Shown piece after piece: positions 35,827 through 37,065 of a DNA stretch of 64,000 nucleotides. Within the stretch, counting starts at the first letter, position 1, and the number at the start of each line of letters is the position of its first letter. The stretch spans positions 63,674,001-63,738,000 of the forward strand of contig NC_088853.1 in the NCBI RefSeq assembly GCF_963853765.1. The letters are read 5' to 3'. The translations under genes were made by a program, and so were the position numbers. Below the pieces are notes generated by a model that worked only from the letters and a program-made list of their open reading frames with translations, did no database searches and had not been told where the DNA came from. The stretch is from Magallana gigas (taxonomy: Eukaryota).

Positions 35827-35861
35827 TCTTTTCTAAAAATTTGGTGGCCCTTAAAAGGGCC
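35827..35861 (-). terminator. Replication-dependent histone mRNA 3' end signal (stem-loop plus purine-rich downstream element)
   Basis: Minus strand reads GGCCCT-TTTA-AGGGCC (35861-35846), then ACCAAA, then AGAAAAGA 11 nt after the stem. It lies 31 nt downstream of the stop of the 35893-36180 ORF. Confidence 0.8.
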
Positions 35862-35892
35862 GAAGGGGTTGGCTTTAAAAAGCCCTACTGAT

Positions 35893-36180
35893 CTACTGAT
35901 GTAGAATCCTCGGCAGCTGGCTAGTCGACATTCTAGCCGTTTGCCGCTGGCAGCTAGGTCGTGGCACGGGGAGGATGGCTGGCGATGGGGGTGGTGTCAT
36001 ATCCCTGAGAGGAACGGGGATAATTGCCGGCGGCCTGTAAGGGTGCTCCCTTCTCCTCCTCCTCCTCCTGAGGGGACTGGCCTGGGCAGGCGGTGACTGG
36101 GGGGCTGGAGGGTCTGCCGCTGCTTGGGGCTGCTGCTCTGCCGATGGCGGGGGCTGCTGCTGCTTGTGTGCCGCCCGCAT
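35893..36180 (-). CDS. 95-aa disordered basic/proline-rich protein ending in a histone H3 K9M-like motif (RQTARMST)
   Basis: ATG at 36180; MRAAHKQQQPPP...RRRRRRREHPY...DMTPPPSP...CQRQTARMSTSQLPRILHQ*. GC-rich island followed by the histone stem-loop. Confidence 0.7.
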   Translation of the reverse strand: MRAAHKQQQPPPSAEQQPQAAADPPAPQSPPAQASPLRRRRRRREHPYRPPAIIPVPLRDMTPPPSPAILPVPRPSCQRQTARMSTSQLPRILHQ

Positions 36181-36328
36181 TCCTCGGACGTCTAGTTGGG
36201 AGATCCGCCCGATCTCGATCTCCGCTATGGTCCGGTAGTGCACTCCCCGTTACAGTCATTCCTTATGTGTTTAAACAAGTTCTAGAACGCATACTAATTA
36301 GTTTAAGGTGGTAAAATATAGCTGGCTT

Positions 36329-36400
36329 TTCTAGAAAGTTCTAGAAATCGATGACAGTAATGTACGGATTCTTATGAAGTCATAGTTTTTTATGACGTCA
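36329..36400 (-). promoter_or_regulatory. Perfect 4-unit heat-shock element (36329-36346) and CRE palindrome (36393-36400)
   Basis: TTCtaGAAagTTCtaGAA and TGACGTCA. A TATA-like TATATTTT lies on the minus strand at 36320-36313, and a further GTTCTAGAAC at 36279-36288. Confidence 0.65.
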
Positions 36401-36626
36401 CTTTGAACTCCCTGATGTTTAATAACTCAGTTTTTTAACTACACACTAAAATACATGATATTATACCTGACTTTAATAAAAAAAAAATCGGGAAAAGCAG
36501 AACATTTTGTTAATAGCAAATACATTTTTAATTTGAATTAGAATTTGCACACTATTAACAACATAATATTTTGTTATGTTTAATAATTTTAATCGATGAA
36601 TACAGTGAAATACACACATACAAAAT

Positions 36627-36809
36627 TCAAGTTCTCTGTTGTTTGATATAGGTCCATAACAATTTTCTCAATTTACACATAGTTCTTACACGGTCTACGG
36701 CCACGAACATCCACGGACTCCTCCGGTCTTCGGGAGGTAAAACATATATTTGATCCTGTGCAGTATCAAAAGTCACTCGTTTTCCTTTTTTGAGACTTAA
36801 TAACTTCAT
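36627..36809 (-). CDS. GADD34/ICP34.5/DP71L-like PP1-targeting protein (possibly frameshifted at the C-terminus)
   Basis: KRVTF (RVxF) followed by EDRRSPWMFVAVDRVR, matching the PPP1R15 pattern R-x-G-P-W-x3-A-x-D-R-x-R-F. The terminal Phe is absent. Confidence 0.65.
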   Translation of the reverse strand: MKLLSLKKGKRVTFDTAQDQIYVLPPEDRRSPWMFVAVDRVRTMCKLRKLLWTYIKQQRT

Positions 36810-37065
36810 CCAACCGAATTGAATGGTTGTAATACGAATCGCTTCTATCTGTTGATGAAGTCGATGACATTTTATCCACTTTTTACTTCTGTCGGGGGAT
36901 AAGATAAACTCCAGGATATCTTGATGATATTCTGTAGAAGAAACGCCAGTCAGTTTAGGTAAAAACTGCTTTTTAACTGCATCGGCGATGTAAGCAATTA
37001 TCTAAGCAAAGTGAGCAATTAACTTGGTTTTTTTTTTTGCAAAGTAACTACTCTATTAACAATTT

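Follow-up and report, generated by a model that had tools for sequence, protein, structure and literature searches.

A Polinton gene with an H3K9M-like tail, a heat-shock motif and a histone-type 3′ end in Magallana gigas: a candidate inhibitor of H3K9 methyltransferases in a variable accessory slot

Introduction

Lysine-to-methionine inhibitors of histone methylation are known as tumor mutations, as engineered tools and, in the case of K27, as one mammalian host protein, EZHIP. For H3K9, one study describes a G9a-H3K9M-SAM structure in which residues 3 to 12 are ordered and the Met lies in the lysine channel, and reports that H3K9M traps Clr4 in a SAM-dependent manner (PMC5030085). EZHIP, according to two reports, is a disordered non-histone protein that inhibits its methyltransferase in cells by a short invariant K-to-M peptide near the C-terminus (10.1101/585729; 10.64898/2025.12.12.693809). 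Viral GADD34 orthologs recruit PP1 via an RVxF motif (PMC10807198).

Here, we analyze a window of 64,000 nucleotides from Magallana gigas (NC_088853.1, positions 63,674,001 to 63,738,000). The original prediction had read ~1.2 kb of it (35827-37052) as one stress-triggered reactivation cassette at the end of a Polinton. We find that such a unified terminal cassette is overstated and that the most striking part is a gene with a K9M tail, which combines a heat-shock motif with a histone-type end. On balance, we favor the reading that this is a decayed sub-terminal accessory region of a Polinton, and that the K9M-tail protein of its subfamily is a likely active-site inhibitor of host H3K9 methyltransferases (SUV39H, G9a, SETDB1).

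Results

Gene content identifies a decayed Polinton

Judged by its genes, the window holds a decayed Polinton, the core of which lies on the plus strand:

12669..13954 (+): polymerase B C-terminal remnant and packaging ATPase, the left part of the Polinton core (ATPase, Pox_A32, E 4.5e-6)
18874..19830 (+): integrase with a C-terminal chromodomain (rve, E 1e-11; Chromo PF00385, E 1e-8)
20896..33423 (+): probable minor capsid, core-protein-like, major capsid and protease genes, in the same order as in TIR-bounded relatives

The window thereby contains the retroviral-like integrase, packaging ATPase, protease and polB remnant of a Polinton/Maverick core and, as in elements of this type, its relatives have TIRs starting AGT and a 6-bp TSD. 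The polB remnant, which we take to be such from its YxDTDS motif, is 79-80% identical to its relatives by sequence comparison. The protease (33115-33423) matches Peptidase_C5 (E 0.096); the capsid candidates have no Pfam match, and their names are assumed by us from resemblance. With its integrase chromodomain, the element may both read and antagonize H3K9 methylation.

The major capsid gene is interrupted by a nested transposon at 23498-31901. This 8.4-kb insertion has long TIRs and an 8-bp TSD (AATTTAAC), is without counterpart in the sister copy described below and contains a P-element-like transposase (PF21787), a split PIF1 helicase and a PHD-finger-like frame. A near-perfect direct duplication of ~1.4 kb (9878-11335 and 14602-16056, 4.7 kb apart) takes in part of the Polinton.

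The cassette belongs to the element, which is truncated in the window

Two features at the right-hand side of the cassette concern the end of the element:

37047..37054 (-): AGAGTAGT, the earlier candidate terminus, not a TIR
37063..37900 (+): host repeat of high copy number, adjoining the cut

The terminus previously placed at 37052 has to be rejected. AGAGTAGT has no partner in the window and no match to the clade TIR, and AGTAGT occurs 30 times in the window. True TIRs start AGTAGTATAAG, and no match to the clade TIR was found within the window. Moreover, orfA homology continues in other copies beyond the point where the window copy stops; this copy is truncated, cut inside orfA. The repeat beside the cut, which is presumably Helentron-like, has a summed contig depth of 10^3 to 10^5 compared to 10 to 100 on the cassette, and is related to 166-bp arrays at 57329-58460.

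Genuine ends are found in other copies. Three relatives of ~21 kb have TIRs that start AGTAGTATAAGGC, with TIR matches of 117-148 nt in all three and a 6-bp TSD in two. A 4.8-kb, internally deleted copy (G000:C1:28811945-28816760, hereafter C1:28.81 Mb) lies between two TIR sequences, one of which lacks its first 26 nt, and within them holds orfA, the GADD34-like frame, HSEs, the K9M ORF and the stem-loop. The cassette therefore consists of Polinton genes, as originally proposed, and not of host sequence past the end. In this copy the TIR is ~3 kb from the RVTF codons, compared to 0.27 kb for the earlier candidate site; in family B, the TIR is 1.85-1.88 kb from the RVxF codons. A genome search with the subfamily TIR gave two exact sites, at the left ends of two copies. 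Within the spacer that precedes the stem-loop in the window, 35 nt (34945-34978) share 89% identity with a segment that lies 400 nt inside the TIR of the copy at C1:28.81 Mb.

The copy at G000:C1:53.30 Mb is 97-99% identical to the window copy and has 7 kb of right flank in common with it; for these two reasons, we regard this sister copy as a duplication of the same insertion and not as an independent one. In an ATPase tree, the grouping of the K9M copies with one sister copy is loose (85/85, unstarred), and for this reason we draw no sequence of events from it.

A narrow gene family with an invariant K9M-like tail

The gene at the center of our reading comprises the following features:

35893..36249 (-): K9M-tail ORF, the part open in the window copy (open frame and third-position bias)
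35923..35946 (-): RQTARMST, an H3(4-11) K9M-like motif (sequence match; TARMST conserved in relatives)
36049..36069 (-): run of seven arginines after SPL, by its sequence a likely nuclear localization signal

The K9M-mimic ORF that had been predicted here is borne out, both as an open frame and by the conservation of its motif in relatives. The ORF comprises the end of a small beta-hairpin domain, a P/Q-rich linker, the arginine run, which retains at least four Arg in 9/9 aligned rows, and a C-terminal H3-like tail. It ends RQTARMSTSQLPRILHQ, which corresponds to H3 residues 4-11 with K9M; host H3, in the sequence that we fetched, reads KQTARKST at these residues. The gene was under coding constraint: between copies that are 79-88% identical in DNA, substitutions in the K9M frame fall 10/8/22 and 13/10/22 on the three codon positions. 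One pair, L033 vs L032, gives a mixed signal because the reading frames differ 5′ of the conserved domain. The alternative frame MTVTGS (35954-36259) was rejected since substitutions accumulate at its non-wobble position.

The family is narrow. Database relatives fall into 12 clusters, and a profile search of 1.84 billion representatives returned 13 matches, the last of them junk. One member, UniRef K1PCE0, is from M. gigas; outside oyster-like data, no relatives were found in viral contigs, metagenome contigs or phages. Relatives in other samples include ATG-initiated versions of 134-172 aa; the database versions begin at several ATGs, leaving the start codon uncertain, and frameshifted alleles are common (cluster P0012, 33 members). 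In a low-confidence structure model (mean pLDDT 60.5), the protein has a three-strand sheet and one helix, with no secondary structure after residue 58. The model gave no fold match at E 0.001, and searches of PDB sequences and of the Atlas gave no match to the protein.

Among 49 relatives inspected, 39 have the C-terminus in frame; the other 10 (other frames or short) were left out of the motif count. TARMST is present in 36 of the 39, Arg8 is changed in two and one stops before the motif, such that Met is retained in 38/38 relatives that reach the motif and lysine is found in none. Because the 39 sequences are mostly near-identical alleles, they represent only ~4 to 6 independent lineages. 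Across four divergent lineages, the invariant positions amount to 7/7 in TARMSTS compared to 27/81 in the linker and 29/51 in the N-domain. The protein thus has the sequence pattern of a K-to-M inhibitor, i.e., Met at the target lysine in an H3-like context and a motif conserved against a divergent, disordered background.

How far the tail resembles H3 by chance can be estimated. RQTARMST is the best match to host H3 4-11 among the 78,023 stop-free 8-mers in the window (29 vs 22), QTARxST arose in 1/200,000 shuffles of a relative, or about 1e-5 per protein, and over 1.69 million translated residues (the window and fetched loci, many overlapping) the motif is restricted to host H3 and the K9M copies. 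These chance estimates argue against the idea that the likeness to H3 is a coincidence and that TARMSTS, conserved as a linear motif in a young and small gene family, has some other function, as does the setting of the motif at a C-terminus behind a disordered linker and an arginine run in a gene that also has a histone-type 3′ end. Still, the independent lineages are few, genome scans test many motifs, and seven of nine metagenome pattern matches, all nine of them non-relatives, showed TARMST in unrelated GC-rich frames that have no stem-loop. We therefore regard coincidence as improbable rather than negligible. That the motif was captured directly as DNA from host H3 is unsupported; the codons differ from host H3 DNA at wobble positions, and the match is thus one at the protein level. 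With H3 4-13 as the probe, the nested transposase contains an unrelated peptide that scores 28 vs 27 for the K9M tail; this ARKS-type peptide, KSRARKSNAG at the transposase C-terminus (25152-27200), may be due to chance.

Compared to the H3K9M mutant, an oncohistone-type protein that traps Clr4 and G9a, the tail is identical over residues 5-11 (QTARMST) and so matches 7 of the 10 residues (3-12) that are ordered in G9a-H3K9M-SAM (PMC5030085). Unlike that mutant, the Polinton protein is natural rather than engineered and has neither a histone fold nor a free N-terminus, and for the latter two reasons it would be unable to enter nucleosomes. In architecture it resembles EZHIP/CXorf67 (10.1101/585729): both have a low-structure linker and a short invariant C-terminal peptide with Met at the target lysine. 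However, EZHIP is a mammalian host gene product that mimics K27 and inhibits PRC2, whereas the Polinton protein mimics K9 and its activity is a prediction. Neither the profile search nor Pfam gave a match that would indicate homology to EZHIP.

An H3 mimic could also have another target: as a nonmethylatable decoy, it could engage proteins that read unmodified K9, K9 demethylases or H3S10 kinases, and it would then act on chromatin or the cell cycle while methyltransferases are not blocked. The equivalents of Ser10 and Thr11 are as invariant as the Met, a free H3 N-terminus is absent and the conserved LPRIL past the motif is not H3-like, all of which would fit such a decoy. What makes this alternative unlikely in our view is position 9 itself, which is Met, and not Arg, Gln or Ala, in all 38 sequences, and K-to-M substitutions are known, from the studies cited above, to trap SET domains. 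Inhibition of H3K9 methyltransferases remains the function that we favor for the tail.

The gene ends in a histone-type mRNA 3′ element

35820..35866 (-): histone stem-loop and histone downstream element (Rfam RF00032)

A histone stem-loop had been noted in this region, and the Rfam comparison upholds it: with 36.1 bits (E 8e-7, cut-off 34), it is the sole Rfam match in the window. It starts 31 nt past the stop codon of the K9M ORF, and host H4 cluster genes share 43/45 nt of the region at their 3′ ends; the two mismatches amount to one swapped stem base pair. As in replication-dependent histone mRNAs, the 3′ ends of which involve SLBP and U7, the stem-loop scores above the gathering threshold, ACCA follows the stem and the purine-rich downstream element equals that of host H4 over 32 nt. 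In contrast to those mRNAs, the Polinton stem-loop follows a non-histone gene, and processing at it is a prediction. A search of the host genome for U7 gave nothing above the cut-off. A pattern search of the genome gave 16 such stem-loop sites, and the stem-loop is kept across Polinton families.

A GADD34-like frame overlaps a conserved ORF

36627..36870 (-): GADD34/ICP34.5-like frame, with RVTF at 36768-36779 (RVTF and W..A.DR; PF10488 E 0.035)
36789..37001 (-): orfA 3′ remnant, overlapping the GADD34-like frame, with the 5′ half missing (31% identical to 168-aa orfA)

The GADD34-like ORF of the original prediction is present. RVTF and W..A.DR are found at 36627-36809 on the minus strand, with a PF10488 match below the cut-off and a break in the frame. 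In the window, this match has 14.2 bits (E 0.035); the sister copy reaches E 0.012 and the best relative 22.1 bits, compared to a gathering score of 26.1. The RVxF PP1-docking motif reads KRVTF in the window and the sister copy, and is accompanied in the window frame by EDRRSPWMFVAVDR. We take the consensus of the eIF2-alpha-binding segment to be W..A.DR.RF..RI. This segment reads WMFVAVDRVRTMCKL in the window subfamily and is similarly altered in L034 and L035, while it is complete (DR.RF..RI) in 17/18 loci L066-L083 and in L112; translation rescue is thus better supported for the relatives than for the window subfamily. Relative to the sister copy and to 4/4 DNA runs, the window copy has a five-base gap near 36786 that puts the frame out of register.

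The nearest described counterparts are HSV-1 gamma34.5 and ASFV DP71L, taken here from PF10488 and PMC10807198. As in these, the RVxF motif at 18 relative loci precedes a segment of the W..A.DR.RF..RI type, and the gene product is likewise a small protein of a DNA virus-like element. By contrast, the Polinton frames score below the Pfam cut-off and overlap a second ORF; in the window subfamily, moreover, Thr replaces Phe and Lys/Leu replace RI.

That second ORF, orfA, is by comparison of its copies a conserved gene. The window remnant aligns with only the C-terminal half of the full-length 168-aa orfA from a TIR-bounded relative, and between families orfA is just 43% identical. Its Atlas matches score under 0.9, and a likeness to ApoL is a lead only. 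The GADD34-like frame is overprinted on orfA (L077:4306-5063, L067:4745-5319 and relatives; 36627-37001 in the window). At 11/15 RING-family loci, it is open for 119-153 codons before RVxF and has an ATG 47-53 nt past that of orfA. Leaky scanning under eIF2-alpha phosphorylation acts in ATF4 and GADD34, and it could switch between orfA and the GADD34-like frame.

Relatives carry a different gene in the same slot

In the window, all cassette parts are on the minus strand, opposite to the core genes, as had been described. As a rule this does not hold, since the cassette is on the capsid strand in TIR-bounded relatives. The synteny anticipated in such relatives is likewise partial: the GADD34-like gene and the stem-loop are kept near one end in 3/3, but a RING-like gene fills the slot and there is neither K9M nor HSE. 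Two of these relatives, for which we mapped each gene, have the order TIR, zinc-knuckle gene (minus strand), orfA with the overlapping GADD34-like frame, Pro-rich RING-like gene and stem-loop; next come the genes from ATPase to protease, which share the strand of the cassette, then polB on the opposite strand and TIR. Among 18 loci around more distant GADD34-like matches, the stem-loop precedes the ATPase in 12 and none is shown in two, while the remaining four belong to another family with a CARD-PC4 gene next and no stem-loop match. L078, L079, L081 and L083 (e.g., L079:4758-6189) have a stand-alone GADD34-like gene (PF10488 E 1.4e-4) and then a CARD plus PC4 gene.

A Pro-rich gene is present in about a dozen Polinton copies (L066-L077, L112, L113; e.g., G000:C9:49910935-49932002); its product has a RING-like Cys cluster at the C-terminus, with no Pfam match. 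These genes adjoin the GADD34-like gene and end close to the histone stem-loop and downstream element. In L035 and L036, close sister copies with a GADD34-like gene, the slot holds broken RING-like genes. Homology between the N-domains of the K9M and RING-like proteins, which had been suggested by eye, found no support in profile comparison (probability 0.07% and 5%). The window subfamily thus differs from its Polinton/Maverick relatives in having a K9M-tail gene where they carry a RING-like gene, with no homology detected between the two. In herpesvirus, ICP34.5 neighbors ICP0; the Polinton relatives similarly have a GADD34-like gene beside a Pro-rich RING-like gene near the terminal repeat.

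A terminal gene with four CCHC zinc knuckles (L077:3183-4061; L107, C1:53298073-53298546) adjoins the cassette in families B and C and is at the opposite end in the window subfamily, in which the cassette faces away from the core. Because this gene sits at opposite ends between families, internal inversions are implied.

Since either a RING-like or a K9M gene occupies the slot among relatives, what stays constant is the GADD34-like gene together with the stem-loop, whereas the gene that they enclose differs. The best reading of these comparisons is that the cassette is a variable accessory slot, filled in the window subfamily by a probable EZHIP-like inhibitor of H3K9 methyltransferases.

Heat-shock and CRE motifs are positioned for the K9M gene

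36279..36288 (no strand): remnant of a second HSE, with two units (three in two other copies; comparison of copies)
36328..36347 (no strand): perfect four-unit heat-shock element
36393..36400 (no strand): CRE palindrome TGACGTCA

The heat-shock element proposed for the region is present, as the only perfect four-unit HSE in the 64 kb (0.04 expected), and four perfect units are found in 4/4 K9M copies, i.e., the window copy and the three others. CCAAT follows the HSE in those three and is deleted in the window copy. With at least three inverted nGAAn units upstream of the core promoter, the arrangement is that expected of an HSF1-driven promoter. The predicted CRE is also there, but it is one of five in the window (0.36 expected) and therefore weak alone. 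At the matching position (+373 to +408 from the RVxF codons), a CRE is present in the sister copy, L034, L036 and 9/9 family-B loci; it is missing in L032, L033, L035 and the family-C loci.

Both motifs lie past the 3′ end of the GADD34-like gene and ahead of the K9M gene, and placed in this way they can serve the K9M gene only. In L034 and L036, HSE clusters lie upstream of orfA and the GADD34-like frame instead; no HSE was found upstream of orfA in L032 or L033 or within the cassette at any of 15 RING-type loci. Because the position and presence of HSEs vary in this way, heat sensing appears to be lineage-specific.

The positions of the motifs weigh heavily against the original prediction in its full form, i.e., one heat-sensing, terminal early unit in which translation rescue and desilencing act together to reactivate the element. 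The two genes are indeed neighbors on a common strand, in a related copy a TIR lies within ~3 kb of them, and the HSE clusters of L034 and L036 would suit joint control. In the K9M copies, however, the HSE sits between the two genes, the terminus is false, the copy is broken, and strand and slot content differ among relatives. A single unit of this kind seems to us quite improbable, and we read the K9M gene and the GADD34-like gene as separate units of an accessory region.

The copies in the assembly are damaged

36246..36279 (-): breaks in the window copy (comparison with the sister copy and two other copies)

Compared to the sister copy, the window copy lacks 123 bp at 36278/36279, which held the CCAAT box, a TATA-like box, the first ATG and the third unit of the second HSE, and has a one-base gap near 36246. 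A further ~270 bp near 36250 are absent from the window and sister copies and present in two others. With the promoter and start region of the K9M gene and the GADD34-like frame both broken, the function implied for this locus cannot be ascribed to the window copy, which, from its sequence, is almost certainly inactive. All four K9M copies in the assembly are damaged in or around the gene, and the assembly yielded no K9M copy in which both ends are present and the core is whole.

This damage also bears on whether the host has adopted the K9M gene, which would then serve at a fixed locus as a heat-inducible regulator of chromatin. In 4/4 DNA runs, coverage of the cassette is that of a low-copy sequence; two of these runs have the same junction to the flanking repeat, and many ATG-initiated variants are on record. 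Five runs on record as RNA match just small fractions (0.10-0.23) of the window, and we do not count them as evidence of expression. With breaks in or around the gene in every assembly copy and with frameshifted variants frequent, we nevertheless consider adoption by the host very improbable, and we continue to regard the gene as one of the element.

Discussion

Here, we place a gene with an H3K9M-like tail in the accessory region of a Polinton subfamily. Because the K9M tail is conserved and its gene is flanked by a promoter motif of heat-shock type and an RNA end of histone type, intact copies likely jam silencing enzymes. We suggest that heat stress would act through HSF1 to switch on the K9M gene and that the histone (SLBP/U7) pathway would cleave its transcript, leaving no poly(A) tail. 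The arginine run would then bring the protein into the nucleus, where its tail, like H3K9M peptides, would engage SET domains loaded with SAM and thereby lower H3K9 methylation. The GADD34-like gene would be a separate upstream transcription unit, the product of which would recruit PP1. The host encodes SUV39H at C4:45.71 Mb; six further Pre-SET matches with stop codons (L124-L129) are clustered at G000:C4:54.48-55.25 Mb.

More tentatively, the locus may encode an oncohistone mimic of the element's own, i.e., a heat-inducible, histone-mRNA-processed H3K9M decoy that would shut off host H3K9 methylation, in a swappable anti-silencing slot that sister families fill with a RING-like ligase, beside a GADD34 mimic. 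This is an attractive possibility suggested by the arrangement of motifs and genes, and we hold it with some reserve.

In our literature search, which had most subscription journals outside its scope, we found no Polinton histone mimic, no Polinton GADD34, no histone stem-loop in a Maverick, and nothing that connects Polinton accessory genes with H3K9 silencing. GADD34 mimics and histone-type mRNA ends would be added to the Polinton gene set. If our reading is correct, a natural, element-borne K9M mimic would be a direct counter-defense aimed at the mark by which transposons and integrated viruses are silenced, and would provide a concrete mechanism by which endogenous Polintons may leave silencing under heat stress in farmed shellfish.
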